Source: an uncultured Eubacteriales bacterium (lineage in GTDB: Bacteria > Bacillota > Clostridia > Oscillospirales > CAG-272). From it: a DNA stretch of 64,000 bases. Location of the stretch: NCBI GenBank assembly GCA_900549725.1, contig URPL01000007.1, forward strand, positions 6,031 through 70,030, in the 5' to 3' direction. Below the pieces are notes generated by a model that was given only the letters and a program-made list of their open reading frames with translations, searched no databases and was not told the origin of the DNA. A program made the position numbers and the translations under genes. This document shows positions 7,197 through 44,248 of this stretch, piece by piece (within the stretch, counting starts at the first letter, position 1; every line of letters starts with the position of its first letter).

Positions 7197-8309
7197 TCAG
7201 TCGTTTTTGAGTGCCTGCTCGCGCGGGAGCAAATAACCGAGAGCTACGAGCGCCTCAGCCTCCAAAACAGCACCGCCGGCGGCGCCGCGCAGCGTATTAT
7301 GCGAAATTCCGACAAATTTATAATCAAACAGCGTATCCTCTCTCAGGCGCCCGAGGGAGATGCCCATTCCGCCCTCAAGGTCGCGGTCAAGGCGGGTCTG
7401 CGGGCGGTCGGGTTCTTCAAAATAGGTCAAAAACTGCTTCGGCGCAGAAGGCAGCTCCATTTTTTGCGGCAGGGAGCGATAATTTTTCCAAGCCGTGAGG
7501 ATCTGCTTTTTGGTCGGTTTTTCGGCAAAGCGCACAAAGGTGCAGGCAAGGTGCCCGTTTGTCACGGGGACGCGGATACACTGCGAGGTGATCAGCGGCG
7601 CTTTGGCGCATACAATGCTGCCGTTTTCGATATGCCCCCAGATTTTCAGCGGCTCCTGCTCGCTTTTTTCCTCTTCGCCGCCGATATAAGGAATCACATT
7701 GTCCTGCATCTCCGGCCATTCGCGAAAGGTCTTTCCCGCGCCGGAAATCGCCTGATAGGTAGTAACGACGACCTCGGTCGGCTTATAGTCAAGCAGCGCG
7801 GAGAGCGCGGGAACATAGCTTTGAATGGAGCAGTTCGGCTTGACGGCGATAAAGCCGTATTTTGTGCCGAGGCGTTTGCGCTGAGAGGGAATAACGGCAA
7901 AGTGATCGGCGTTGATCTCCGGAATCACCATGGGAACATCCGGCGTGCCGCGATGCGCGGAGTTGTTGGAAACAACGGGAATCTCCGCTTTGGCATAGCG
8001 CTCCTCCAGCACCTTGATCTCATCCTTTGGCATATTGACCGCGCAGAAGACAAAATCCGTTTTTTCCTGCAGGGAGGCAATATCGCCTGCATCAAGCAGG
8101 CGCATCTCTTTGGCATAGGCGGGAATTTCGCCGCCGAGCTTCCAGCGGCCGCGCACAGCCTCTTCATAGCGCATGCCCGCGCTGCGGGCGCTTGCGGCAA
8201 GCGCGCTGACTTCAAAATAGGGATGGTTTTCCAGCAGCATTACAAAACGCTGACCGACCATTCCGGTAGCGCCGACAATTCCGACGCGCAGTTTTCTATC
8301 CGGTTTCAT
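7197..8309 (-). CDS. asd: Aspartate-semialdehyde dehydrogenase
   Basis: 370 aa with the N-terminal NAD(P) motif GIVGATGMVGQ and an active-site KPNCS block. A consensus promoter lies upstream. Confidence 0.9.
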   Translation of the reverse strand: MKPDRKLRVGIVGATGMVGQRFVMLLENHPYFEVSALAASARSAGMRYEEAVRGRWKLGGEIPAYAKEMRLLDAGDIASLQEKTDFVFCAVNMPKDEIKVLEERYAKAEIPVVSNNSAHRGTPDVPMVIPEINADHFAVIPSQRKRLGTKYGFIAVKPNCSIQSYVPALSALLDYKPTEVVVTTYQAISGAGKTFREWPEMQDNVIPYIGGEEEKSEQEPLKIWGHIENGSIVCAKAPLITSQCIRVPVTNGHLACTFVRFAEKPTKKQILTAWKNYRSLPQKMELPSAPKQFLTYFEEPDRPQTRLDRDLEGGMGISLGRLREDTLFDYKFVGISHNTLRGAAGGAVLEAEALVALGYLLPREQALKND

Positions 8310-8352
8310 AATTCATTTCTCCGATATTTGCAATGATTTTGTATCTCCTAAT

Positions 8353-8381
8353 ATTATAGCAAGATATATGCGGTTTGTCAA
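8353..8381 (-). promoter_or_regulatory. Perfect consensus sigma-A promoter TTGACA-17-TGcTATAAT for asd
   Basis: Minus-strand read: -35 at 8376..8381, a 17-nt spacer ending in TGC, and -10 at 8353..8358. About 37-nt 5'UTR with a GGAGA SD. Confidence 0.6.
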
Positions 8382-8385
8382 AAGA

Positions 8386-8418
8386 TTTTGCAAGTTGTGC
8401 GGCATATAACTTGCAAAA
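8386..8418. repeat. 11-bp perfect inverted repeat TTTTGCAAGTT-N11-AACTTGCAAAA between divergent promoters
   Basis: Arms at 8386..8396 and 8408..8418 are exact reverse complements. The repeat lies 5 nt upstream of the asd -35 and 45 nt upstream of the EIIC-like gene -35. Confidence 0.6.
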
Positions 8419-8462
8419 ATTTTCGATTTGAAAAACGAAAGGAAAGAATTTTTTCCGCCGCG

Positions 8463-8491
8463 TTGACTTTTGCGGTTCAAAATGGTACAAT
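8463..8491 (+). promoter_or_regulatory. Sigma-A promoter TTGACT-17-TGgTACAAT for the EIIC-like/PAP2 unit
   Basis: Read directly from the sequence. Lies 35 nt upstream of GTG 8526. Confidence 0.55.
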
Positions 8492-8525
8492 AAACTCTCA
8501 ATGAATTCAAACAGGGGGCGATTTT

Positions 8526-9584
8526 GTGACGGTTGGAGCGTTTTTGCGCAAAAAGCAGATTGTGCTTTCTCCGAAGCTTTATTTTGTCGATGCCATGGGC
8601 AGTATGGCGCAGGGGCTTTTTGCCTCTCTTTTGATCGGAACGATTTTTTCAACGCTCGGCAAATTTACCGGTCTGCAGTTCTTCGCCATGATTGCCGCCT
8701 ATGCCACAAAAGCGACAGGGGCGGTGATCGGCGTTGCAATCGCCTATGCGCTGAAGGCGCCGCTGCTCGTGCTGCTCAGCGCCGGGGTGGTCGGTATGGC
8801 GGGCAACGACATTGCAACCGCTTTTTTGATCGACGGCGCGGAAAAAAATCTGACCGGCGGGCCGGCAGGGGCGTTTATCGCCGTTGTGATTGCGGCGGAG
8901 CTTGGCAAGCTTGTCAGTAAAGAAACGAAAATCGACATCTTGGTCACCCCGTGCGTTACGCTTCTCAGCGGCGTCGGAATTGCGGCGCTGGTGGGGCCGG
9001 GCGTCGGTTGGGTGATGTATTGGATCGGCAGCTTCCTCAACTATGCGACCGAGATGCAGCCGGTTCTCATGGGCATTGTGATCTCCGCCGCGGTCGGCGT
9101 GATACTCACCCTGCCGATCTCCTCCGCCGCAATCTGCGCCATGATCGGCATCGGCGGAATCGCCGGCGGGGCTGCTGCCGCGGGCTGCTGTGCGCAAATG
9201 GTCGGCTTTGCGGTAATGAGCTTTCGCGAAAACCGCTTCGGCGGGCTGATTGCGCAGGGGCTCGGCACCTCCATGCTGCAAATGGGCAATATTGTGAAGA
9301 ATCCGCGCATTTGGATTCCCCCGACGCTCGCCTCCATGATCACGGGTCCGCTTGCAAGTGCGGTATTCGGGCTGCGCTGCGAGGGCGTTTCCGCCGGAAT
9401 GGGAACCTGCGGCCTGGTCGGTCCGCTCGGTATTCTCACGGCGACGGACCGCACGCCCATGATGTGGGTCGGGCTTTTGCTGGTTTGCTTTGTGCTTCCG
9501 GCAATTCTTTCGGAGGCGTTTGCGCTTTTGCTGCGCCGCATCGGATGGATTCGGGAAAACGATTTGAAGCTTGACCTTTCCTGA
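8526..9584 (+). CDS. Stand-alone PTS EIIC-like polytopic membrane permease
   Basis: 352 aa of Gly/Ala-rich multi-helix membrane protein. GTG start with an AGGGGG SD. The family assignment rests on my recognition of the N-terminal pattern only. No EIIA/EIIB/HPr genes are nearby. Confidence 0.55.
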   Translation: MTVGAFLRKKQIVLSPKLYFVDAMGSMAQGLFASLLIGTIFSTLGKFTGLQFFAMIAAYATKATGAVIGVAIAYALKAPLLVLLSAGVVGMAGNDIATAFLIDGAEKNLTGGPAGAFIAVVIAAELGKLVSKETKIDILVTPCVTLLSGVGIAALVGPGVGWVMYWIGSFLNYATEMQPVLMGIVISAAVGVILTLPISSAAICAMIGIGGIAGGAAAAGCCAQMVGFAVMSFRENRFGGLIAQGLGTSMLQMGNIVKNPRIWIPPTLASMITGPLASAVFGLRCEGVSAGMGTCGLVGPLGILTATDRTPMMWVGLLLVCFVLPAILSEAFALLLRRIGWIRENDLKLDLS

Positions 9585-17083: not shown

Positions 17084-18218
17084 AAAAAACTTCACCCCGC
17101 GCACCTGTGCAATCATTCATGAACGGGCGCTTTGCGAAAATTTCGCTTTGCTGCAAAAGCAGGCAGAGGGCGCGCGCGTTTGCTGCGTGGTGAAGGCGGA
17201 CGCCTACGGCCACGGGACCGAGCGGGTTGTACGGGCGCTGCGGCGCGCAGGGGCGGATTATTTTGCCGTTTCCTGTGTGGAGGAAGCGGCGGCGGTGCGC
17301 GCGGCGCTGGACGGCGCGCGGGAAATCCCGATTCTGATTCTCGGCTATACGCGCCCCTGCCATATTCCCTATCTTGTGCGGGAAAACATCACGCAGGCGC
17401 TGCTCGGGAAAGAATATGCCGAGGCGGTTTTGCCCATGGTGCCCCGCGGCGAGCGGCTGCGGGTGCATATTGCCGTTGATACGGGGATGAACCGCATCGG
17501 ATATGCGCCCGATGAAACCGAGGCGATGCAAAGCCTGTTTGAAAGAGAGCAGCTTTCCGTAGACGGTATTTTTTCGCATTTTTATGCTTCGGACGAGCCG
17601 AAGAGCGCGGCGACCATGCAGCAATATCGATTGTTTTGCGCCTGCGTGCAGGCGGTGCAAAACGCAGTGGGGCGAAAGCTGCTTGTTCACATTGCAAACA
17701 GCGCCGCCATTTCCAATTTTCCCGCCATGCATTGCGACATGGTGCGCGCGGGCATTTCCCTGTACGGCATTAAGCCCTCCGCCCTGACCGCCGTGGACGG
17801 CTTGCAGCCCGTGATGACGCTGATGACGATGCTTTCCCATATTCATACGGCAAAGGCGGGCGAGGTCGTCGGCTACGGTGCGGGATATACCGTTCCGCAT
17901 GCAATGCGCATCGGCACGCTGCCCATCGGCTATGCAGACGGCTATCTGCGCGCATATGCGGGCGGGCATGTATTGATCCGCGGCAAAGCGGCGCCGCTGC
18001 TGGGGCGCATTTGCATGGATCAATGCATGGTCGATCTCAGCGAAATTCCGGATGCCGCGGTGGGAGACGCCGTGGAGCTGTTCGGGCAGGGTGCTCTTAC
18101 GGCGGATACGCTTGCCGCGCGCGCGGGGACGATTCCCTATGAGGTGTTGTGCCTGCTTTCCAAGCGCGTCGTACGCCTGAGCGAGGAGGAAGCGCACGCC
18201 ATCGCGCAGGAACGGTAA
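17070..18218 (+). CDS. alr: Alanine racemase
   Basis: PLP-lysine block VVKADAYGHG and a C-terminal ICMDQCMVD block. Start at ATG 17070 with an AAAGGAG SD. Confidence 0.9.
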   Translation: MTEYEKNFTPRTCAIIHERALCENFALLQKQAEGARVCCVVKADAYGHGTERVVRALRRAGADYFAVSCVEEAAAVRAALDGAREIPILILGYTRPCHIPYLVRENITQALLGKEYAEAVLPMVPRGERLRVHIAVDTGMNRIGYAPDETEAMQSLFEREQLSVDGIFSHFYASDEPKSAATMQQYRLFCACVQAVQNAVGRKLLVHIANSAAISNFPAMHCDMVRAGISLYGIKPSALTAVDGLQPVMTLMTMLSHIHTAKAGEVVGYGAGYTVPHAMRIGTLPIGYADGYLRAYAGGHVLIRGKAAPLLGRICMDQCMVDLSEIPDAAVGDAVELFGQGALTADTLAARAGTIPYEVLCLLSKRVVRLSEEEAHAIAQER

Positions 18219-18243
18219 CGGTTTCGTTTTGTTTTTAAAAACA

Positions 18244-18272
18244 TTGACAATGAAAGAAAAATACGGTATACT
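18244..18272 (+). promoter_or_regulatory. Consensus sigma-A promoter TTGACA-17-TATACT
   Basis: TTGACA at 18244..18249, a 17-nt spacer, TATACT at 18267..18272. Read directly from the sequence. Confidence 0.6.
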
Positions 18273-18278
18273 GTACAC

Positions 18279-18399
18279 AGATAAGCTGAACCGCTGAAAA
18301 CCAAAAGCGAAAGATGCATTGCTGTGTGCATTTTCCGAGAAGATTGATTCGTTTGCGGCACAAAGCAAGGCATTGTTCTTGCTTTGTGCTTTTTTGTTT
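18279..18399 (+). ncRNA. Candidate cis-regulatory leader (attenuator/riboswitch-like) or small RNA
   Basis: A roughly 120-nt unit bounded by the consensus promoter and a perfect 12-bp terminator. The segment TTGCTGTGTGC (18319..18329) can pair 10/11 with the terminator 5' arm, giving an antiterminator. It is itself sequestered in a local ATGCA/TGCAT hairpin (18314..18331). I recognised no Rfam family. Confidence 0.4.
18358..18399 (+). terminator. Intrinsic terminator
   Basis: Perfect 12-bp stem GCACAAAGCAAG / CTTGCTTTGTGC, an 8-nt loop, then TTTTTTGTTTG. Confidence 0.75.
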
Positions 18400-18518
18400 G
18401 TGTCGGAAGTTTGGCTTCAATTTTTAAGGATTTTTGCAGCTTTGTTCGTCTAAATGTTTTGATTGCATAACGAAAGAGGCGATACCAATGAACAATTTGA
18501 CCTGTACTTAACTTAATT

Positions 18519-19172
18519 TTGTTTTCTTTGGTGTCTGTTTTACCACTTGCAGCGTCCGGAAAGGCGTATATTTTTACAATAAACTGGACCGGAACCGGGG
18601 CAATTGACACGACGGCTGCCGGAAGCGAGGAAGTTCTTAGACATTTGTGGAATATGGGATATGATGCAGGAATGTATTTGAATAACAGTGCTTCTGCGGG
18701 CTATTCCGTCATGCCGAATTCTAAAATTTGGGTTATTTCATCGCATGGGGAACAGGGTGTTCTTCATATGGGAGGAAGCTTCGGGGCTTCAGAGCTATAT
18801 GCTGATTCAACAGCCGGCGGTACAAATCGCTCGCTTTCAAATTTAGCGACATCATCACTTTCCGGTGTAAGATTGGTTATGTTCTCAGCTTGCTACAGCG
18901 GAGTTACATCCGGCGAGTATGGAAATTTGGTTAGCATGGTTCGTAACAAAGGTGCGCAGTGTGTTGTAGGCTGGAACGATGCACTTCGAAATTCAACATC
19001 AAATGAATGGATTCGCTTGTTTTTTGAAGAAGCAAACCAGGCACATGAACCGATTTGGGAATGCTTTAATCATGCAGATTATTGGTCAAGCTATTTCGGT
19101 CCATCATATGCCGTGGAAGAATTAAAAAACAGGCATGAGCAAGGAAATATTGCGTTATATCTGTATCAGTAA
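18519..19172 (+). CDS. Small secreted caspase-fold (clan CD / CHAT-like) cysteine-peptidase-like protein
   Basis: His-then-Cys dyad in the clan-CD context: VISSHG (His codon 18744..18746) and LVMFSACYSG (Cys codon 18891..18893), 49 residues apart. The N-terminus looks like the tail of a signal peptide. The ORF track uses TTG 18519, which has no SD, whereas an SD+ATG at 18473..18490 lies in the adjacent frame (see findings). The codon usage is AT-rich, unlike the neighbours. Confidence 0.55.
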   Translation: MFSLVSVLPLAASGKAYIFTINWTGTGAIDTTAAGSEEVLRHLWNMGYDAGMYLNNSASAGYSVMPNSKIWVISSHGEQGVLHMGGSFGASELYADSTAGGTNRSLSNLATSSLSGVRLVMFSACYSGVTSGEYGNLVSMVRNKGAQCVVGWNDALRNSTSNEWIRLFFEEANQAHEPIWECFNHADYWSSYFGPSYAVEELKNRHEQGNIALYLYQ

Positions 19173-35387: not shown

Positions 35388-36995
35388 ATGCAAACTGTGA
35401 AAAAAACGGGCGGTGTGTTTCGAACCGCCACGGTGCTCCTGCTGTGTTGCTTTTTCCTGCTCTTTGTGATTTGCCCGCTGGGGGCGATGCTGTTAAATCT
35501 CGGCAAGGCGGATCTCGGAGCGTTGCTCCAAGACGGCTCCATTCGCACGGCGGCGGGTCATTCGTTGCTGGTTTCTCTGTGCGCAACCGTGATTTCCATT
35601 GCGGTTGCGGCGGTAGCTGCGGTATGCGTCAGCCGCACGGCGGTGCGGCTGAAATCCTTTTTCTCCGTTTTGATTCTTTTGCCTATGCTCATTCCGTCAA
35701 TTTCACACGGCATGGGGCTGACAATCCTGTTTGGGCAAAACGGAACGCTGACAAAGTTACTTGGCATGCAAAACGGTATTTACGGCTTTCCCGGGATCGT
35801 GGTCGGCTCTGTGATGTATGCCTTTCCGGTTGCATTCCTCATGATCTGCGATATTCTGCGATATGAGGATGCAACGCCGTATGAAGCGGCAAGAGTGCTC
35901 GGCATCGGCAAAGCTCGCCGCTTTTGCGCGATTACGCTGCCGTATCTGACAAAACCAATGATCAGCGTATTTTTTGCCGTATTCACGATGATTATCACGG
36001 ATTACGGCGTGCCGCTGATGATCGGCGGCAAATATAAAACGCTGCCGGTTTTGATGTATGAAGAGGTCATCGGGCGGCAGGATTTTGCAAAGGGGAGCTT
36101 TTTCGGCGTGATTTTGCTGCTGCCCGCTGTGATTGCATTTTTTGTGGATTTATTCTGCAAAAACGATCGCCGCAGCGGCTCGGTTGCAAGAGAGTTCACC
36201 CTATCGAAAAAGTTCGTGCGCGATGCGCTTGCCTTTGTGTATCTTGCGGTGCTTTCCGTCTGCGTGATTTATCCGATCGCTTCTTTTGCGGAGCTTGCCT
36301 TCACCAAGGCATATCCGATCGATCTGACCTTCACGCTGCACCATGTGCAGAATACCTTCCGCAAGGGCGCGGGCGATTATCTGCTCAATTCCGTGCTCAT
36401 TGCCTGCGGAACTGCGCTGCTCGGCACGGCGACGGCATTTCTCAGCGCCTGCTTTACGGCGCGTGATCGCGCGCGCGGCTCCCGCTTTTTGCACCTGATG
36501 TCCATTTTGTCGCTTGCCATTCCTGGCATTGTGCTCGGGCTTTCCTATGTGCTGTTTTTCAGCGGGACATTTCTCTATGCAACGCTGGCAATTCTGATCC
36601 TCGCCAATACGATCCACTTTTTCTCCTCCCCGTATCTGATGATGTACAACAGCATTGGAAAGCTCAGCCCGAATTTGGAGGCGGCTGCCGCAACGCTCGG
36701 CATCAAAAAGGCGCGTTTGATTTTTGATATTATTCTGCCGCAGACGCGCTCTACATTGGCTGAAATGTTTTCGTATTTCTTTGTCAACTCCATGATGACC
36801 ATTTCCGCCGTTGCGTTTTTGGCAACGCTTACGACAAAGCCGATTGCGCTGATGATTCCGCAGTTTGAGGCGCAGATGCTGCTTGAGGCATCGGCATTTG
36901 TTTCCGTTTTGATTTTGGCGGTTAATCTGCTGCTCAAGGGCGCGGTGGCGCTTTTGAAGAGAGGTATGGAGCGGCGCAGAACGACCGCCCGCTGA
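35388..36995 (+). CDS. ABC transporter permease, fused double-domain (FbpB/ThiP/PhnUV-like)
   Basis: 535 aa of polytopic protein made of two tandem permease halves. Confidence 0.8.
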   Translation: MQTVKKTGGVFRTATVLLLCCFFLLFVICPLGAMLLNLGKADLGALLQDGSIRTAAGHSLLVSLCATVISIAVAAVAAVCVSRTAVRLKSFFSVLILLPMLIPSISHGMGLTILFGQNGTLTKLLGMQNGIYGFPGIVVGSVMYAFPVAFLMICDILRYEDATPYEAARVLGIGKARRFCAITLPYLTKPMISVFFAVFTMIITDYGVPLMIGGKYKTLPVLMYEEVIGRQDFAKGSFFGVILLLPAVIAFFVDLFCKNDRRSGSVAREFTLSKKFVRDALAFVYLAVLSVCVIYPIASFAELAFTKAYPIDLTFTLHHVQNTFRKGAGDYLLNSVLIACGTALLGTATAFLSACFTARDRARGSRFLHLMSILSLAIPGIVLGLSYVLFFSGTFLYATLAILILANTIHFFSSPYLMMYNSIGKLSPNLEAAAATLGIKKARLIFDIILPQTRSTLAEMFSYFFVNSMMTISAVAFLATLTTKPIALMIPQFEAQMLLEASAFVSVLILAVNLLLKGAVALLKRGMERRRTTAR

Positions 36996-37018: not shown

Positions 37019-37903
37019 ATGCTGACAAAAAAACAATTTGATATTCTTACCGCGCTTGAAGCCGACGCAAAATTGACGCAGCGCGCCTTGGCGCAGAAAA
37101 CGGGCATGTCTCTCGGGACGGCGAATAAAACGCTTGGCGAGCTGAGCGCCCTTGGATATACAAAGGACGGCGCGCTGACGGAAAGCGCCCGTGCAGCGCT
37201 TGAGCCGTATCGCGTGAAGCGGGCAATTTTCATTGCCGCGGGCTTTGGCTCGCGTTTGGTGCCGATCACGCTGAATACCCCAAAGCCTCTGGTGCGCGTC
37301 AAAGGCAGGCGCATCATCGAAAGCCTGCTGGATGCCGTGGTTGCGGCGGGGATTGAGGAAATTTATATTGTGCGCGGGTATCTTTCCGAACAGTTTGACC
37401 AGCTGCTTTATAAATACCCGACGATTAAGTTTATCGAAAACCCGGCGTATAATGAGGCAAACAACATCTCCTCCATGATGTGCGCGCGCTATCTTTTGCA
37501 AAGCGCATATGTTTTTGAAGCGGATCTTTTGCTGTATAACCCGACACTGATTACAAAATATCAATATTCCACCAATTATCTCGGCGTGCCCGTTGCAATG
37601 ACGAACGACTGGTGCTTTACCGTGAAAAACGGCTATATCACGCATCTTGGCGTCGGCGGCAGGGATTGCTGTCATATGTTCGGCATTTCCTATTGGAGCG
37701 CCGAGGACGGCGCAAAGCTTGCAGGGCATATTGAAAAGGTGTATCAGTCGCCCGGCGGGAAAGAGCGCTATTGGGATCAGGTCGCTTTTGACTATTATCC
37801 CTCCGAATATAAAATTTCCGTTCGCGAATGCAGCTTTGAGGATATTGTGGAAATCGATACTTTCCGCGAGCTCAAGCAGTTGGACGAGACATACGATGTA
37901 TAA
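37019..37903 (+). CDS. Winged-HTH fused to LicC-family cytidylyltransferase (phosphocholine/phosphonate-type NTP transferase)
   Basis: The N-terminal ~65 aa are MarR-like wHTH (FDILTALEADAKLTQRALAQKTGMSLGTANKTLGEL). The remainder is LicC-like: AIFIAAGFGSRLVPITLNTPKPLV, YIVRGYLSEQFDQL, YNEANNISS, YWDQV and EIDTFRELKQLD. Confidence 0.8.
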   Translation: MLTKKQFDILTALEADAKLTQRALAQKTGMSLGTANKTLGELSALGYTKDGALTESARAALEPYRVKRAIFIAAGFGSRLVPITLNTPKPLVRVKGRRIIESLLDAVVAAGIEEIYIVRGYLSEQFDQLLYKYPTIKFIENPAYNEANNISSMMCARYLLQSAYVFEADLLLYNPTLITKYQYSTNYLGVPVAMTNDWCFTVKNGYITHLGVGGRDCCHMFGISYWSAEDGAKLAGHIEKVYQSPGGKERYWDQVAFDYYPSEYKISVRECSFEDIVEIDTFRELKQLDETYDV

Positions 37904-37917
37904 AAATCGAAAAAGCG

Positions 37918-37949
37918 AAAAAATGCTCCCCGTGCGGGGAGCATTTTTT
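37918..37949. terminator. Bidirectional intrinsic terminator
   Basis: AAAAAATGCTCCCC / GGGGAGCATTTTTT with loop GTGC, between the convergent licC-like and GH16 genes. Confidence 0.8.
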
Positions 37950-37967
37950 CTGTGTTTCCGTGTTTGT

Positions 37968-39710
37968 TCAGGGGCGCGCCGCGTCGTTTAAATAGATCGG
38001 CGGATAGCTCTGCATATACTCCTTCAGCTGATAGACATGCACATAATCGATGATAAACTCTGCGGGAAAATCGTCAAGATCAAGACTGCCGAGCTTATCG
38101 TCGTTAAAATATGCGCTGTCGGAAGCCATAATCTGCAAAAGCATGTTTCCGGGGGAATCGCTGATGCCCTCGGTCAGGGTGCCGTAGTAATACCCATCCA
38201 CAAAGAAGGAATAGCCCTCTTTGGTCCACAGCATGCCGTAGGTATGATACTCGTTGTCCAGCGTGGAGAGCGGCAAATATGCGCCGAGCTTTGTGTTGGG
38301 TGCGGTACCGGGAACGCGGCTATAAAGATAGGTCTGCGCCACAATACGGTCGTCGTTGTTTTCGGGGCCGTACGGCGTGCCGTTTTCATCCGTTTTCCAT
38401 TGCCATGTTCCGTTTGGCAGAATCTCGGCGGAGCCGCCGGGACGGCCGTGCGTCCATACGGTGGAGGTCATTTGTCCGGAGCGCCCGTTGCTGTCGCGCT
38501 GGCCGGGGTAGCTTTCAAACATATCGACCTCGATCAGCTGCGTGAGATATTCGTTGAAATAACGCGGGTCATTGCGGTGCGCTGCAAATTCTTCAGCCGT
38601 GCGCAATCCGTTTTGATAGCTGCGCATCCAAAAGGCGGTATTTGTGCCGGAGGCGGTGGGCAGCTTGCAACGGATCTCATAATAGCCATAGGTTTGCCAA
38701 AAGCTTTCGGTGGTGTCGATCGCAGGAATTACGCTCTTTGCCTGCCCGTCGCCGTATTTGGTTTCCCTCAGCACAAGGTTGCCGTTGCCGTCCGTATAAA
38801 TATGCTCGGAGAGAAACGCATCAAGATCATTGCCGTATTGCGCTCTGAGCTCTTCCTGCAGCGAGGCAGGCTCCAAGATCAGCTGGTTGAAATCGGCTCT
38901 GCCGTCCAGATAGCGCCAAACGGATTTGTCGTACTCATTTCCGTCAAAATCCTGTACAAAGGTAGGAATCAAAGCGGAGCCGGTTAAAAGATAGCATTCG
39001 GGAGTGCTGTTATAGTAGTTAAACAGGCGGTGCGCCATGGCGGCGGCTTCCGCACGGGTCGCGTTGCCGCGGGGCACGAAGGTGCCGCTTCCTTTGCCGT
39101 ACATCATCTGCATGGCGCTGAGTGCGCTGACAGCCTTGCGTGCCCAGCCGGAAATTTGGGCGGCATCGGTATAGGTTGCTTCCAGATCAACGGAATAGCC
39201 GCTCAGATCAACCTTGCAGTATTTCGAAATGAAGTTATAAAGAATCAAAGCGAGCTGTTCGCGGGTGATATTGTCGTTCGGGGCAAAAATGCCGTCGCCC
39301 ATACCGCTCACGATTTTGTTTTCCGCAGCCCACTGCACGGCGGGGTAAAACCATTTTCCTTCCGGAACATCGGAAAAGTCTGTTGTTTTCGTAACCGTGA
39401 CATCCACGCCGATTTTATTCATCAAGGCGCGCAGAATCTGCACATACATTGCACGGGAGAGCGTGACGGAGGGGTTAAAATAGGCGGAATCGCCCATGTT
39501 TGTCATGATTCCGTTGTCCACAGCCCATTTGATGTCGTTGTATGCCCATCCCTGCCCGACATCGGTCAGGTAGGAAAAGTCATTGAGCGGTCTTGCCCAA
39601 TTGCCCGCGGAAAAAGCGGAGGCGATGAGCGTGCCGCACAAAAGCACCGCGGCAAGCGCAAATGCGCAAAAGCGCAGCGCGCGGGCGGATAACAGGCTTC
39701 TTTTTTTCAT
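37968..39710 (-). CDS. Cell-surface SLH-domain protein with C-terminal GH16-type glycoside hydrolase domain
   Basis: Signal peptide, then three SLH repeats (WAYNDIKWAVDNGIMTNMG.., WFYPAVQWAAENKIVSGMG.., ISGWARKAVSALSAMQMMYGKG..). GH16 beta-bulge-type catalytic motif E-V-D-M-F-E (codons 38514..38531). AAGGAGG SD 11 nt after the kinase stop. Confidence 0.8.
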   Translation of the reverse strand: MKKRSLLSARALRFCAFALAAVLLCGTLIASAFSAGNWARPLNDFSYLTDVGQGWAYNDIKWAVDNGIMTNMGDSAYFNPSVTLSRAMYVQILRALMNKIGVDVTVTKTTDFSDVPEGKWFYPAVQWAAENKIVSGMGDGIFAPNDNITREQLALILYNFISKYCKVDLSGYSVDLEATYTDAAQISGWARKAVSALSAMQMMYGKGSGTFVPRGNATRAEAAAMAHRLFNYYNSTPECYLLTGSALIPTFVQDFDGNEYDKSVWRYLDGRADFNQLILEPASLQEELRAQYGNDLDAFLSEHIYTDGNGNLVLRETKYGDGQAKSVIPAIDTTESFWQTYGYYEIRCKLPTASGTNTAFWMRSYQNGLRTAEEFAAHRNDPRYFNEYLTQLIEVDMFESYPGQRDSNGRSGQMTSTVWTHGRPGGSAEILPNGTWQWKTDENGTPYGPENNDDRIVAQTYLYSRVPGTAPNTKLGAYLPLSTLDNEYHTYGMLWTKEGYSFFVDGYYYGTLTEGISDSPGNMLLQIMASDSAYFNDDKLGSLDLDDFPAEFIIDYVHVYQLKEYMQSYPPIYLNDAARP

Positions 39711-39721
39711 AAATAACCTCC

Positions 39722-41059
39722 TTATTCGTAGCGAATATTGGCTTGCAGGGTTTTAAACGGCGCAAGGGAAGCGGCGGCTGCGCCGAACAGGGCGGCACCG
39801 TAGGCTGCTTCCTCACGGTGCGCGGGAACTTGCATGGGGAGCGTCATGGCGTCTTCAAACAGGCGCCGCAGCACGGCGCTTTTGCGAATGCCGTTGCCCG
39901 AGCCGTACAAATGCTCGGCGGCGGGCAGCCCGAAGGAACGATAATAGTCAAGCAATTCGTTTGCCATGCCGTGCATTACGCCGCCGACAAAATCGGTCGG
40001 GGTGAAATTGCGGTCGGAGAGGTTTTCGATGCTTGCGCGTTTTTTCGGGTCCTCCCGCGTTCCGCAAAAACTGGTGGAAAAGCGGATGGGGTCGGGCAGG
40101 GAAAAGATTTCTTCCGCCAGGCGGTCGATGATGGGATATTGCGGCTCGTCGTGCCCAAAGAGCGCAGCATAGGAACGGAAGAACTGCTCCAGCAGCGCCA
40201 GCGCCCGCCCGCCGCAAAGAGAGCAGCCGCAGACCAGGGAAAGCCCGTCGATATACGGGCGAATCTCACCGCTTTTCACGCCGCTTGGGGCGGCGCAGAT
40301 CACGGAGACCTGGCTTCCCGTGCCGACATTGAATAAAACGGAGCCCTCTGCGCTGCCGACGGTGCCGAGAATGCTTGCCTGGTTATCGCCGATCGCCAAG
40401 GAAACGGGAATGCCGCGATAGGTGCCGAGCGTCTCGGTCTTTGTGCTGACTGGGGGCAGAATCCCGCAGGAAAACAGTGCTTTGCAGGCATTGCGGTCGA
40501 AATCGCCCGCTGCCCTATCATAAAGCCCGAGGCTTGCGGCGTCGCTTGCGTGCATCAGCGGCGTTTTTTTGCCGCACAGGTGCATGGAAAGCGCATCATG
40601 AATCGTGCACAGCTGCCGGGCGCCCGCGGGCACGGTGCCTTCCAGGACGGCATGTGTATGCGTTGCAAGCCCGTATCCCGCGCTGATTGTATATCCCGTG
40701 CACGAACGAATCCTGGCAAGGGTCGTCTCCCCGTTTGCAAGCGGCTGCGCAGCGCGCTGGTCCTGCCAGGTATAAAGCGGGCCAAGGGGTGCGCCGTCTT
40801 TATCAAGATATACAATGCCGTGCATTTGCCCGGTGATGCCGATTGCGGCGATGGGGGCGAAGGCATCGCAAAGCTCGTCGATCATCGAAACGGCTCTGTC
40901 CAAAATGGCAGTTGCATCCTGAACGCGGGCATAGGGCGCAAAGCCCGATAAAAAGGGTTCGGACGGGACGGTCACCGCATGCAGCACGGTGCCGTCGCCG
41001 CTGTTTACCACAACGGCGCTGAGCGTCGTTGTGCCGATATCAAAACCGATGGTATGCAT
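39722..41059 (-). CDS. FGGY-family carbohydrate kinase (short, sedoheptulokinase/xylulokinase-like)
   Basis: 445 aa with GFDIGTTTLSAVVV, IGITGQMHGIVYLD, YTWQDQRA and IGDNQASILGT, which are FGGY signatures. Starts 8 nt after the GRE stop. Confidence 0.75.
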   Translation of the reverse strand: MHTIGFDIGTTTLSAVVVNSGDGTVLHAVTVPSEPFLSGFAPYARVQDATAILDRAVSMIDELCDAFAPIAAIGITGQMHGIVYLDKDGAPLGPLYTWQDQRAAQPLANGETTLARIRSCTGYTISAGYGLATHTHAVLEGTVPAGARQLCTIHDALSMHLCGKKTPLMHASDAASLGLYDRAAGDFDRNACKALFSCGILPPVSTKTETLGTYRGIPVSLAIGDNQASILGTVGSAEGSVLFNVGTGSQVSVICAAPSGVKSGEIRPYIDGLSLVCGCSLCGGRALALLEQFFRSYAALFGHDEPQYPIIDRLAEEIFSLPDPIRFSTSFCGTREDPKKRASIENLSDRNFTPTDFVGGVMHGMANELLDYYRSFGLPAAEHLYGSGNGIRKSAVLRRLFEDAMTLPMQVPAHREEAAYGAALFGAAAASLAPFKTLQANIRYE

Positions 41060-41067
41060 GGGGCACC

Positions 41068-43434
41068 TCAGCAGCGGGTGGAGCCAAGATCGAGGCGTGT
41101 GATGATATCCTGCTGAATTGCGGGGGAAAGGTCCAAAAAGTTGACAAAGGTGCCGTGAATGCGCATGATGTAAACGCCGCTGGGCGCATATTTTTTCGGA
41201 TCTGCCAAAACCTTGCGCAGGATTTCCGGCGTTGTTACATTGACATACAGATAAAACGGCGCGATTTTTTTATAATAGTCGTTGAAGAACAGCGGCTTGC
41301 AGACGCGGTCCGCAAACTGCTCGCCCTTTTCCTCATAGCTTTTTGCGGGGAAGAGGTTGGGGTCGATGCCGAAATGAGAGGCATATCCGCCGCAGAATTT
41401 CTCAAAGGGCAGCTTCCAGGTGGAAAGCGTACGGAAGCCGAGCCCCATGTGTGCGTCTCCGTACAGCGGGTCAACGCCGTAGTTGAGCATATCACGGGCT
41501 TTGCGTCCCGTGGGCAGCGCGCCCACCCAATAGCCGTAGAGCAAATGGGTGGAGGGGGTGGAAAAATCGGGGCGGAACGGGTTGCCCCAGTTATTCTTTG
41601 CGGCGCGCACCATATCGGCGATTTTGGAGGTCAGGGCAACGGTTTCTTCATCCGCCTCATCCTCATTGTTGCCGAATTTCGGGCAGGCAAGCAGCCATTG
41701 CCGCAGCTCTTCATAGCCCTCAAAGTTGCATTTCAGCGCGTCGAGCAGCGTTTTCGCATCCTGCGGGCGCTCGCGCAGCAAGTGATCGACTGCGACAAAG
41801 GAATCCGCAACAACGGTATTGCCGTGAATCAGGCAGCCGCTGCCGTTATATTCCGTGCCCTGATGCTCCGTGTCGCGCATGTCGTAGCCGCTCTTTACGC
41901 CGCCCATGAGAATGGAGAGAAACGGCACGGGCAAAAGCGAAACGGCATGCGTCGCCTCATTGGCGGACTCGGTCATTTTATCAATATAGAATTGCGCGTT
42001 TTCATAGAAGCGCTCACGCAGATGCGTCAGCTTTTCTATAGCGCTTTCCTTTTTGCATACGGAGCCGATCTCTTTGCCCGTAATGGCGGAAATGCCGTCG
42101 GTGAGGGTCAGCTCCAAAATTTTTCCGAGATTGAGCCAGCAGTTTGTTGTGTTGCCGTTGTCCTTGCCCATAATCAGCGGCTCCTGGCAGCCGGCAATGG
42201 AATAATCGGGCAGATCGCTCTCCTTGACGCCGGCGCGGCGCAGCACCGCAAATACGGAATCATCATTGAACAGCGAGGGCGTCAGGGCGCCGGGGGTGAA
42301 GAAGAAGCGGCCCATTTCGCGGTAGAGCTCGGCGGGGGTGTTTTTGTGCAGCTTTACGGAGAGAATCGGCTGCGGCAAATTCATATCATAATATGCATCA
42401 AACAGCGCATAGGAGGTCGGGCAGGTCAGGTCGTTTCCTGCGGTATCTCTGCCGCCGATGATGAGATTTTGAGAGATTGCCCAGGAGCGGTCGCCGACAT
42501 TGAAGAAGACCAAAAGATGCTTGAGAAGCGCCGCCGCGTCTGCACGGTCAAGTCCGTCATGCGCGCGGTAGGGCTCAAAAATGCGATCCGCATTGCCAAC
42601 GGAAAAGGCAAAGGGGTTAGGGGATTGCTCAAGGCACATCAGCTGCCAGCACAGCATAAAGGACTGAATGGCCTCATACATCGTCTCGGCGCCGTAGGCG
42701 GGGACCTTTTCCAGCGTCTGCACCATTTGCTGCAGCTGCGTGCGGCGCGGCGCATCGGCGGTTTTCATTTGCTCTCTTGCGATGGCTGCATAGCGCCCTG
42801 CCAAAATCAAAAGAGCATCCACACTGAGCAGCATTGCGCGGTATTCCGCAGCCTGTGCGTCGTCGCAGGGGGCGCTTTGGCGCTGCTCGATCTCTTCGCG
42901 CACAGCGCAGATGCCGCGGGCGAGAACCCGGCGCATATCGGGAATGACATGGCCGGTCACCTGCTCCATAAAATAGGCGACCTCGGCGGTATATTGTTCG
43001 CTCTTTGCATAGGTTGTGCTCAGCGCCTCGGCATAGGCGCCGTTGGCATCGTGCGCGCGGACGGCGTCGATGCGTTCCTTGGTGATTTCCTCGTTCGGTT
43101 CAATATCTCCGAGCACCGCAATCGGGTCGCAATAGCCCGCGAAGGATTCCACACGGAAGGATGGGTTGATCAGGGCATAGCTGCGCGCAAAGGCGTCGCG
43201 CTGTGTTCCCGCAAAAATCGCGTTTTCGGAAATGGAGAGCGGCAGCTCCTCGCATACCTTTTTCAAAAGATATGCCGCCTGTACCGCGGCGGGTTCATCC
43301 TTACATTCCGCTTCATGCGCAATGCGGATTTCCTTGGATAAAAACCATCCGTCCAGACGCTTGCGCGCGCGCTCCTCCTTGAAAAGCGCCTTTGCCATTT
43401 CGGTCAGGCGCTCGGCTGTTGCAATTTTGTTCAT
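41068..43434 (-). CDS. Glycyl radical enzyme, PFL2/eliminase-like, unassigned specificity
   Basis: 788 aa. Cys loop IAGCQEP (Cys416 codon 42187..42189, Glu418). C-terminal glycine loop YIMRIHGTFVNFLDLSPAIQQDIITR (Gly761 codon 41152..41154), which aligns to the canonical RVxG[YF]..F..L...Q.dii.R. The N-terminal region is typical of the PFL2 family. Confidence 0.88.
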   Translation of the reverse strand: MNKIATAERLTEMAKALFKEERARKRLDGWFLSKEIRIAHEAECKDEPAAVQAAYLLKKVCEELPLSISENAIFAGTQRDAFARSYALINPSFRVESFAGYCDPIAVLGDIEPNEEITKERIDAVRAHDANGAYAEALSTTYAKSEQYTAEVAYFMEQVTGHVIPDMRRVLARGICAVREEIEQRQSAPCDDAQAAEYRAMLLSVDALLILAGRYAAIAREQMKTADAPRRTQLQQMVQTLEKVPAYGAETMYEAIQSFMLCWQLMCLEQSPNPFAFSVGNADRIFEPYRAHDGLDRADAAALLKHLLVFFNVGDRSWAISQNLIIGGRDTAGNDLTCPTSYALFDAYYDMNLPQPILSVKLHKNTPAELYREMGRFFFTPGALTPSLFNDDSVFAVLRRAGVKESDLPDYSIAGCQEPLIMGKDNGNTTNCWLNLGKILELTLTDGISAITGKEIGSVCKKESAIEKLTHLRERFYENAQFYIDKMTESANEATHAVSLLPVPFLSILMGGVKSGYDMRDTEHQGTEYNGSGCLIHGNTVVADSFVAVDHLLRERPQDAKTLLDALKCNFEGYEELRQWLLACPKFGNNEDEADEETVALTSKIADMVRAAKNNWGNPFRPDFSTPSTHLLYGYWVGALPTGRKARDMLNYGVDPLYGDAHMGLGFRTLSTWKLPFEKFCGGYASHFGIDPNLFPAKSYEEKGEQFADRVCKPLFFNDYYKKIAPFYLYVNVTTPEILRKVLADPKKYAPSGVYIMRIHGTFVNFLDLSPAIQQDIITRLDLGSTRC

Positions 43435-43455
43435 GGTAATGCTTCCTTTCTGTGC

Positions 43456-44178
43456 TTAGGTATGGACAATGTGAATTCCGGCATCGGTAAAGGTTTGCTC
43501 AAAAAAGGCTACGGTATCCTTTGAGACAAACGCATCGTGCATTTGATAGGGCTTGCCGATCTTGCTCCATTTCTCTTTGCCGTATTCGTGATATGGCAGA
43601 ATCTCAACGGAAAATTTTCCCGGAAGCGCTGCAAAAAAGCGGAGAAAGCCCTTGGCGTCTTCTTTTGCATCGTTGAAGGTGTGAATCAGGGGGATGCGAA
43701 CCACGGTCGGCACCGGGGAAGCGGAAAGCGCCGCAAAATTCTCTTTGAGGCCGTCAAGCGTGCCGCCGGTCACGGCATGCAGCTTTTCCGGGTCATAGTG
43801 CTTGCAGTCACACATCAGGCAGTCAAGCCATGGCAAAAGCGCATTGAGATGCGGCAGGGAAAGATTGCTTTCGATCGCCGTTGAAATACCGCTTTCGTGC
43901 AGCCCCTGCAAGAGCTCCCGCGCAGCTTGCCATTGCAGCAGGACCTCGCCGCCAGTCAGCGTCACGCCGCCGCCGTCGATCATCATCGGCAGGCAGCTTT
44001 TTGCCTCCCTGATCAAATCTGCGGTGTCGCATTCCTTTGCGGCGCGGCCGGGGTCCATCCCCTCGGGATTGGAGCACCAGGGGCAATGCCAGTTGCAGCC
44101 CTGCAAATGGTAGACAAGGCGATTGCCCGGGCCGTCCTGTGAGTAGTTGAATCCTTTTTGAAAATAGCGTATTTTCAT
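43456..44178 (-). CDS. Glycyl-radical enzyme activating protein (radical SAM), PFL-AE-like short form
   Basis: CX3CX2C motif CNWHCPWC, DGPGNR and a GGVTLTGGE SAM motif. About 240 aa with no ferredoxin-like Cys-rich insert. Start set at the second ATG 44178 (AAGGA SD). ATG 44211 would lie at or next to the predicted TSS. Confidence 0.85.
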   Translation of the reverse strand: MKIRYFQKGFNYSQDGPGNRLVYHLQGCNWHCPWCSNPEGMDPGRAAKECDTADLIREAKSCLPMMIDGGGVTLTGGEVLLQWQAARELLQGLHESGISTAIESNLSLPHLNALLPWLDCLMCDCKHYDPEKLHAVTGGTLDGLKENFAALSASPVPTVVRIPLIHTFNDAKEDAKGFLRFFAALPGKFSVEILPYHEYGKEKWSKIGKPYQMHDAFVSKDTVAFFEQTFTDAGIHIVHT

Positions 44179-44219
44179 GGCAGCAGTCCTTATCGGGAAC
44201 GGTTTTCCCATCTTTATTC

Positions 44220-44248
44220 ATTATAGCAAAGCCATATGAAAAAGGCAA
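44220..44248 (-). promoter_or_regulatory. Sigma-A promoter with extended -10 (TTGCCT-17-TGcTATAAT) for the GRE operon
   Basis: Read on the minus strand: -35 TTGCCT (44243..44248), a 17-nt spacer ending in TGC, and -10 TATAAT (44220..44225). Confidence 0.55.

Follow-up and report, generated by a model that had tools for sequence, protein, structure and literature searches.

Genes at the locus

The window analyzed here is a 64,000-nucleotide stretch of contig URPL01000007.1 from an uncultured Eubacteriales bacterium (assembly GCA_900549725.1). On its minus strand, a short radical S-adenosylmethionine (SAM) activating enzyme (the activase), a PFL-like glycyl radical enzyme (GRE), and an FGGY-family sugar kinase follow one another in tight order, with gaps of 21 nt and 8 nt. 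Together they probably form a working three-gene catabolic module, in which a minimal activase and a GRE of the 1,2-eliminase/isomerase class serve, with the kinase, a sugar-like substrate. The activase, annotated as the short form of GRE-activating enzymes, lies at 43456..44211 (251 aa from the ATG at 44211). Its true start is probably the ATG at 44178 (Met12), giving 240 aa; homologs of the same clade align from there, and an AAGGA Shine-Dalgarno-like site lies upstream. The GRE (41068..43434; 788 aa) was typed as an eliminase/isomerase using Pfam, an AlphaFold2 model, and Foldseek. The kinase (39722..41059; 445 aa) is divergent; it carries the Pfam domains FGGY_N and FGGY_C, and its best NCBIfam match is XylB at 101 bits (cut-off, 380). 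Neither a second GRE nor a second activase was found in the window.

Catalytic residues and fold of the glycyl radical enzyme

The Gly loop R758-I-H760-G761-T762-F763 is encoded at 41146..41163 on the minus strand, with Gly761 (codon 41152..41154) as the predicted radical site. The Cys loop A414-G-C416-Q417-E418-P419 (42178..42195, minus strand), part of the motif IAGCQEP, holds the predicted thiyl site Cys416 (42187..42189) and the predicted catalytic base of the CXE motif, Glu418 (42181..42183). HMMER alignments placed Gly761 under the radical Gly of glycerol dehydratase (1r8w; RVAGY) and Archaeoglobus fulgidus PFL2 (2f3o; RVAGW), and Cys416 and Glu418 under GCVEP. Gly761 also aligns with the radical Gly of PflB, PflD, and YbiW. 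His162 (42949..42951, minus strand), in T-G-H-V, aligns with the GHV motif of glycerol dehydratase (1r8w) and is conserved in at least 90% of a 107-sequence alignment. It is the equivalent of glycerol dehydratase His164, which has been proposed to protonate the leaving hydroxyl, and the CXE motif defines the GRE 1,2-eliminase/isomerase class, the GRE isomerases having retained it (PMC13450708). An earlier sequence-only reading of this stretch had assigned the Gly and Cys residues by eye, with His and Thr flanking Gly761 and with a C-x-E loop of the eliminase/dehydratase type in place of the Cys-Cys of PFL; its positions were exact, and the alignments to 1r8w, 2f3o, and other GREs upheld the assignment.

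The GRE fingerprint is RVxG[FWY]x6-8[FL]x4Qx2[IV]x2R (PMC13450708; PMC11528403). Its downstream part is present as FVNFLD-L-SPAI-Q-QD-I-IT-R, with R758 at -3 and L767, Q774, I777, and R780 at the expected places, and the conservation that the sequence-only reading had seen there (L...Q.DII.R) extends through the clade. Beyond Ile for Val, the sole mismatch is at Gly+1, where Thr762 replaces an aromatic residue; His fills the free "x" position, and an aromatic residue sits at Gly+2 (Phe763) instead. In a 29-sequence clade alignment (sequences 62 to 83% identical), Gly761, Cys416, Glu418, His162, the downstream fingerprint, and all six residues of RIHGTF, Thr762 included, are invariant. The gene reads as intact and as encoding a real glycyl radical enzyme.

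PF02901 covers residues 40 to 634 (E = 1e-107), and no other Pfam family was found on the GRE; the same annotation, PF02901 alone, was obtained for all 120 close homologs. The Gly_radical model PF01228 gave no match in the last 150 residues even at E ≤ 10, against 71 to 102 bits in sister clades, so that strong divergence of this domain is a mark of the clade. Scores against curated models were far below cut-off for the PFL2/glycerol dehydratase subfamily TIGR01774 (241.5 bits; cut-off, 678.2) and for the equivalogs HypD (186; cut-off, 1100), HpsG (177; cut-off, 1000), CutC (147; cut-off, 1050), and PFL (TIGR01255; 41; cut-off, 994), none of the four equivalogs exceeding 186 bits against cut-offs of about 1000. 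The curated cut-off for indoleacetate decarboxylase was not reached either.

The AlphaFold2 model of the GRE, built with the 107-sequence alignment, has a mean predicted local distance difference test (pLDDT) score of 92.2 and a predicted template modeling (TM) score of 0.93. In the glycyl radical domain, block pLDDT values are mostly 78 to 95, and only the last residues are low. Foldseek returned TM scores of 0.85 to 1r8w, 2f3o, and 5i2g and of 0.80 to 0.85 to 50 solved GRE chains. Glycerol dehydratase, PFL2, propanediol dehydratases, N-methyl-hydroxyproline dehydratases, PflD, CutC, and HypD lie at TM 0.83 to 0.85 with 20 to 25% identity, and the best structural matches are all C-O, C-N, or C-S eliminases or isomerases. 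The predicted fold is the canonical one, a PFL-like ten-stranded beta/alpha barrel.

Distribution and layered signature of the family

The nearest-homolog set comprised 120 database proteins, 67 to 99% identical to the window GRE, and all 120 carry RIHGTF and [IV]AGCQEP. Every sampled sequence down to 50% identity keeps this signature, save one with RIHGTY, which speaks for conservation and not chance. Relatives were searched for using one genome per species and were found in at least 556 loci; the best 80 are mostly from Acutalibacteraceae, Oscillospiraceae, Christensenellales, and unclassified Clostridia of the ruminant or human gut and of digesters. Isolate genomes encoding a relative include those of Christensenella tenuis NSJ-35, bacterium 1XD8-76, and Claveliimonas bilis, and a Hydrogenoanaerobacterium sp. 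carrier is known from an assembly only. The relatives bear generic database names ("pyruvate formate lyase family protein," "formate C-acetyltransferase," or "hypothetical").

For the signature survey, 222 full-length GREs sampled from close to distant were aligned. His at Gly-1 and Ala-Gly-Cys-Gln-Glu in the Cys loop occur together in 77 sequences and are both lacking in the other 145, with no mixed case. Four branches make up the superclade with these traits: RIHGT[FY], the clade of the window GRE (50 to 100% identical to it); RIHGQY, from Atribacteria (42%); RVHGM[SN] (about 35%); and R[VI]HG[YF]S (about 31 to 34%). By this alignment, His760 and Gln417 are traits of the wider superclade, while Thr at Gly+1 followed by Phe at Gly+2 is specific to the window's clade, and the aromatic residue at Gly+1 was lost in several superclade branches (Thr, Gln, or Met). 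The co-occurrence of His and Gln reflects shared ancestry with conservation. Further marks set the superclade apart from canonical GREs: two residues are inserted in EQ[ST]PNP[FY]AFS, 11 residues are missing ahead of SQN, GxLxHG contains His537, and one strand reads TPST[HN].

The June 2026 review, which covers all characterized GREs, contains nothing of the RIHGT type (PMC13450708). No characterized clade member was found in the literature on GREs with FGGY, anhydroglucitol, anhydroglycolysis, mannose-6-phosphate isomerase, or the carrier taxa. A paper on rumen sulfoquinovose was considered as a lead and set aside, as it concerns other enzymes. The GRE is best filed as a member of a distinct, uncharacterized clade within the eliminase/isomerase class and not as a new kind of system. 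The sequence-only reading had proposed a distinct clade from what it took to be a mixed signature. Distinctness is borne out by scores far below all curated cut-offs and by the 20 to 25% identity of solved relatives; the signature itself proved to be layered instead of mixed.

Another group of GRE homologs that break RVxG[FWY], and were likewise overlooked by motif screens, are the aminoacyl radical enzymes, which have Ala, Ser, or Thr at the radical Gly and come from the eliminase part of the tree (PMC11528403; JACS 2024). Unlike these, the window GRE keeps the Gly and deviates at Gly-1 (His), Gly+1 (Thr), and Cys+1 (Gln). Among the distant hits of the survey, Ala or Thr occupies the radical position in P0191 and P0364 (RVAAYV), P0227 and P0386 (RVSTYS), P0370 and P0374 (RVATWT), and P0384 and P0388 (RVATYS); several aminoacyl radical enzyme homologs among them have odd Cys loops, e.g., GCMQP, GCFEA, and GCFLP. 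One further sequence, P0127 (746 aa, 41% identical to the window GRE, from a single Logan contig), has lost both catalytic signatures, with an RVPGAI Gly loop and a Cys loop lacking Cys, VGDELP, and may be a degenerate or repurposed paralogue.

Activase

The activase matches the Pfam families Radical_SAM (E = 1.6e-14) and Fer4_12 and carries CNWHCPWC, DGPGNR, and TGGE. CNWHCPWC (44074..44097, minus strand) supplies Cys39, Cys43, and Cys46 (251-aa numbering), which as the CX3CX2C motif ligate the SAM-cleaving [4Fe-4S] cluster, and is kept as CN.xCPWC in clade activases. The spacing from CX3CX2C to GGE is 40, equal to that of Escherichia coli PflA (40; YbiY, 98; PflC, 70), and the window activase has no CX2CX2CX3C motif. 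TIGR02493, the hidden Markov model for the PFL activating enzyme (PFL-AE), aligns with it in one stretch (139.2 bits; cut-off, 231.75), and TIGR02494 (PFLE_PFLC) aligns in two stretches that skip the insert (163.3; cut-off, 174.35). TIGR02494 represents the majority type of GRE activase, whose ferredoxin-like insert between CX3CX2C and GGE has up to eight Cys. Spacing, model matches, and alignment together indicate that the Cys-rich ferredoxin-like insert is absent, as the sequence-only reading had noted for an activase of about 240 aa with CNWHCPWC as its only cluster motif. That reading had also called the short form typical of PFL-AE, in agreement with the 2026 review, in which PFL-AE and the class III ribonucleotide reductase activase are the only GRE activases known without an auxiliary domain (PMC13450708). 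Both have a radical SAM domain only, like the window activase; PflA differs from it in reading DGPGIR where the window activase reads DGPGNR, and the two are 30% identical.

The likeness to PflA does not reflect common descent of the short form. The window activase shares 45% identity with the clade activase of Hydrogenoanaerobacterium (L001), with which it aligns on both sides of the L001 insert, and only about 30% identical to PflA, and likewise to PflC. These comparisons identify it as an orthologue of the insert-bearing clade activases and not of PflA; the short form therefore arose by loss. Spacing was measured across 77 clade activases. It is 85 to 88 in 17, which have a conserved C-P...C-x2-C-x3-4-C insert, 45 to 57 in nine with insert remnants, and 38 to 41 in 51, including the window activase, which have no insert. 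Sister-clade activases have a spacing of 95 to 97, two complete CX2CX2CX3C-P motifs, and Fer4 Pfam hits. Of the four Cys of the 85-to-88 forms, one aligns with the Cys-Pro of motif 1 and the other three with the initial three Cys of motif 2. In a two-cluster ferredoxin, these same residues ligate a single cluster, and we infer that the 85-to-88 forms keep a one-cluster-like insert. The series indicates that the short activase is a derived loss, reached as the clade shed its auxiliary clusters step by step. In a rough neighbor-joining tree, insert-bearing activases are mostly on earlier branches, and short forms occur in several places, including the branch of the window activase. The absence of the insert therefore holds for the window activase and for most of the clade but is not a trait of the whole, as 17 of the 77 keep the four-Cys insert. 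RIHGTF is the same whichever activase form accompanies it, so Thr762 is not an adaptation to the short activase.

RIHGT-clade activases (window residues 18 to 38; L001; and L071, from C. tenuis) share the N-terminal signature FQKGFNYSQDGPGNRLVYHLQGCN, with Asn where other GRE activases, sister clades included, have Ile (DGPGIR). Co-evolution of this Asn with the changed Gly loop may be the reason. Partial reduction of the auxiliary domain is also seen in the well-known genome of E. coli: PflC (L092 5259-6137), encoded beside pflD, the gene for the anhydromannitol-6-phosphate isomerase, has a reduced insert with a spacing of 70, 10 Cys, and a single CxxCxxC...CP motif.

Conserved cassette and genomic context

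Gene neighborhoods were compared across 85 loci. The activase is carried in 77 loci (at position -1 relative to the GRE gene in 76) and the FGGY kinase also in 77 (at +1 in 73). A 352-aa cupin resembling phosphomannose isomerase (PMI) follows in 52 (at +2 in 49), a 220-aa protein without a family match in 28 (at +3 in 25), and a divergent ROK regulator is found in 16 (at -2 in 14). The cupin matches TIGR00218 at 81 bits and PDB entry 1qwr at 3e-16 and shows Q-x-H, E, and H motifs spaced as expected, which marks it as a relative of class I PMI. None of the PMI-like, 220-aa, and ROK cassette genes was found in the window. Other recurrent neighbors, namely, pyrimidine-biosynthesis and housekeeping genes, were rejected as functional partners and attributed to shared synteny.

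Additional sugar-related genes occur at individual loci. The Hydrogenoanaerobacterium locus further encodes one DUF4432 protein, one SIS protein, ROK proteins, and a ribose-type ATP-binding cassette (ABC) transporter; at the C. tenuis locus, the extra genes encode a sugar-binding protein and an ABC transporter as well as a Zn-dependent alcohol dehydrogenase and URO-D-like proteins. In the sister clades, RVHGM GREs are accompanied by a long activase and then an FGGY kinase; an RVHGY GRE has an FGGY kinase, a class II aldolase, PfkB, SIS, and lyxose isomerase as neighbors; a Moorella RVHGF GRE has two PfkB kinases, a type I PMI, and a ribose-type ABC transporter; and one further locus has a ROK regulator and a GFO/IDH oxidoreductase. 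Immediately after one RVHGY-type sister GRE (L089 7969-9135 and neighbors) come a RuBisCO-like protein and an E1/transketolase-like pair, in an unusual sugar-phosphate gene cluster that also holds SIS, PfkB, and lyxose-isomerase genes. Genes of the URO-D family (PF01208) recur near superclade GREs (L088 1368-2495; L089 12720-13808; and the P0313 contig), and C. tenuis (L071) has three copies (2040-3203, 7761-9035, and 17474-18673). PF01208 also includes methylcobamide methyltransferases. The recurrence could reflect a functional link, e.g., to methylated sugars, or coincidence.

Downstream of the kinase in the window, and 11 nt past its stop, begins a gene for an SLH-anchored GH16 glycoside hydrolase (37968..39710, minus strand; 580 aa; three SLH domains and GH16 in Pfam), which has a strong Shine-Dalgarno site. 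Upstream of the activase, a consensus scan found a promoter-like TTGCCT-17-TATAAT with an extended TG (44220..44248, minus strand; 10/12 matches). After the GH16 gene, the only strong terminator-like hairpin (37917..37950; 15 pairs, bidirectional) likely ends the transcription unit. From the tight spacing, the promoter-like site, and this hairpin, the activase, GRE, kinase, and GH16 genes are probably cotranscribed in this genome. The GH16 gene is a singleton among the 85 loci and lies outside the conserved cassette, and its product has weak laminarinase-like PDB matches; it was rejected as a clue to the substrate source of the family because it is found in this genome only and is only weakly laminarinase-like. 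On the opposite strand, a PhnU2-like putative 2-aminoethylphosphonate ABC permease (35388..36995, plus strand; 378 bits, below cut-off) precedes a protein in which a winged helix-turn-helix domain is fused to a LicC/MurU-like nucleotidyltransferase (37019..37903, plus strand), and the two may form a phosphonate- or choline-type cell-surface decoration module.

Proposed function and alternative explanations

The sugar-related context, the conservation of the catalytic Gly, Cys, Glu, and His, and a fold of the eliminase type point to radical C-O cleavage of a sugar-like molecule, by elimination or isomerization, as the most likely function. Invariant Asn, Thr, Ser, Asp, and His abound in the segments that line the pocket, e.g., GKDNGNTTN and STPSTH, which fits a polyhydroxylated substrate. 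The chemical steps can be drawn by analogy with characterized GREs, with residue roles taken from the review (PMC13450708). The single [4Fe-4S] cluster of the activase would reductively cleave SAM, and the resulting 5'-deoxyadenosyl radical would take a hydrogen from Gly761. The glycyl radical would oxidize Cys416 to a thiyl radical, which would abstract a hydrogen from a hydroxyl-bearing carbon of the sugar-like substrate. Glu418 would then deprotonate the hydroxyl, and His162 would serve as the acid when the neighboring C-O bond breaks, so that a deoxy-carbonyl compound is formed. The FGGY kinase would phosphorylate the substrate or the product of the GRE, and in most relatives, the PMI-like enzyme would then connect the pathway to hexose phosphates.

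Several observations weigh against this proposal. The nonaromatic residue at Gly+1 and the missing PF01228 match mean that activation or radical storage might differ from the canonical case. The glycerol-binding positions are changed (H281/S282 of glycerol dehydratase to F/A and W445/H446/D447 to N/T/T), so no known reaction can be transferred. The PMI step is not universal, as the window and its 83% identical relative have no PMI-like gene, and most loci have no transporter in the cassette.

Among the characterized systems, glycerol dehydratase (Clostridium butyricum, 1R8W) and the propanediol dehydratases (5I2G and 9RCO) are the best matches in sequence and structure (198 bits and TM 0.85 for 1r8w; TM 0.85 for 5i2g and 9rco) and share with the window GRE the barrel, the radical Gly, Cys-x-Glu, and the His164 equivalent. 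It is nevertheless quite improbable that the window GRE is an orthologue of B12-independent glycerol dehydratase or 1,2-propanediol dehydratase with merely cosmetic motif differences: identity is just 23 to 24%, TIGR01774 reaches 241 bits against 678, the Gly loop is RIHGTF and not RVAGYS, the Cys loop has Gln for Val, the glycerol-binding positions differ, and the superclade has indels of its own, including the PNP insertion and the 11-residue deletion. The activase lacks the ferredoxin-like domain, and the conserved partner is an FGGY sugar kinase instead of aldehyde-handling enzymes or a microcompartment; neither an aldehyde or 1,3-propanediol dehydrogenase nor a microcompartment shell was found among the annotated gene clusters that occur repeatedly at the 85 loci. 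A. fulgidus PFL2 (2F3O), whose function is debated, is the second-best match (192 bits; TM 0.85) and is uncharacterized like the window GRE but is archaeal and has the canonical RVAGWS and GCVE. A ring-opening isomerase of the PflD/YbiW type, in which the kinase would act first and the GRE would take a phosphorylated anhydro-sugar, would be a sub-case of the module proposed here. These enzymes of anhydroglycolysis (8ID0, 8YJO, and 8ID7) share a CXE-type loop and a phosphorylation-linked carbohydrate context at 25 to 28% identity and TM 0.83 to 0.85. Streptococcus dysgalactiae PflD (8id0, with 1,5-anhydromannitol-6-phosphate bound) ranks high among the sequence hits (166 bits) and also matches well in structure (TM 0.83; 25% identity), PflD is the closest of the E. 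coli proteins (28% identity), CXE is retained as in GRE isomerases, and the context comprises a sugar kinase, a sugar transporter, and a ROK regulator. The sub-case is still unlikely, since PflD is no closer to the window GRE than glycerol dehydratase is, PflD and YbiW have the canonical RVAGYS loop, and the cassette has a PMI-like isomerase instead of a fructose-6-phosphate-type aldolase. FGGY kinases, moreover, usually act on open-chain ketoses or polyols and not on pyranoid anhydro-sugars. In E. coli, pflD sits with phosphotransferase system components and ybiW beside fsaA (fructose-6-phosphate aldolase) and a sugar phosphatase; neither is found with an FGGY kinase and a PMI-like gene.

The database names and the PflA-like length and spacing of the activase would suit a pyruvate or 2-ketoacid formate-lyase. 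This is hardly credible given a single Cys followed by Gln-Glu (AGCQEP) where PflB has Cys-Cys (ACCVSP), a TIGR01255 score of 41 bits against 994, 22% identity to E. coli PflB, and an activase orthologous to the insert-bearing clade activases and not to PflA. A decaying or nonradical relic would account for the lack of a PF01228 match at E ≤ 10 (71 to 102 bits in sister clades) and for the nonaromatic Gly+1 but is very improbable: Gly761, Cys416, Glu418, His162, and the downstream fingerprint do not vary across sequences 62 to 83% identical, a relative is present in at least 556 loci, the cognate activase is retained in 77 of 85, and the glycyl radical domain is modeled with confidence. The radical might instead be stored on Thr762 and not on Gly761, as in threonyl radical enzymes. 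Some aminoacyl radical enzymes do carry Thr at that position (PMC11528403), RVATWT-like motifs are among the distant hits, and a Thr-Phe reading restores an aromatic residue at +1 (Phe763), the Atribacteria RIHGQY likewise having its aromatic residue at +2. Here too the odds are very long, longer than for a relic, as Gly761 is invariant and aligned with the radical Gly in all alignments, a Thr site would put Arg at -4 and leave a spacer of 5 to [FL], outside x6-8, the sister branches with RVHG[YF]S are canonical but for His, and a Gln radical site in RIHGQY is implausible.

A working eliminase/isomerase-class module on a sugar-like substrate thus remains the preferred explanation. A wider proposal, which we hold as tentative and rather doubtful, is that the whole superclade is a new functional GRE class acting on a hexose-type sugar or sugar phosphate in a reaction outside the 2026 review, with His760 and Gln417 as a polar pair at the Gly-Cys relay and with activases forming a series with two, one, and no auxiliary clusters. 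The co-occurrence of His and Gln has one clade origin and is not independent evidence of physical coupling.

Significance

The clade fails both the RVxG[FWY] fingerprint and the Gly_radical model and is probably undercounted in surveys using those criteria, although it is present in hundreds of species of gut, rumen, and digester Clostridia. The stepwise domain loss offers small activases together with matched two-, one-, and zero-cluster orthologues for comparison; if correct, the series would show that the ferredoxin-like domain is dispensable for glycyl radical installation and would provide a tractable system for studying its role. Among the carriers, Christensenella tenuis, Claveliimonas bilis, and bacterium 1XD8-76 are in culture. 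The partnership with a kinase and, usually, a PMI-like enzyme points to an unrecognized anaerobic carbohydrate pathway in Acutalibacteraceae, Oscillospiraceae, and Christensenellales, gut groups that are abundant but little studied.

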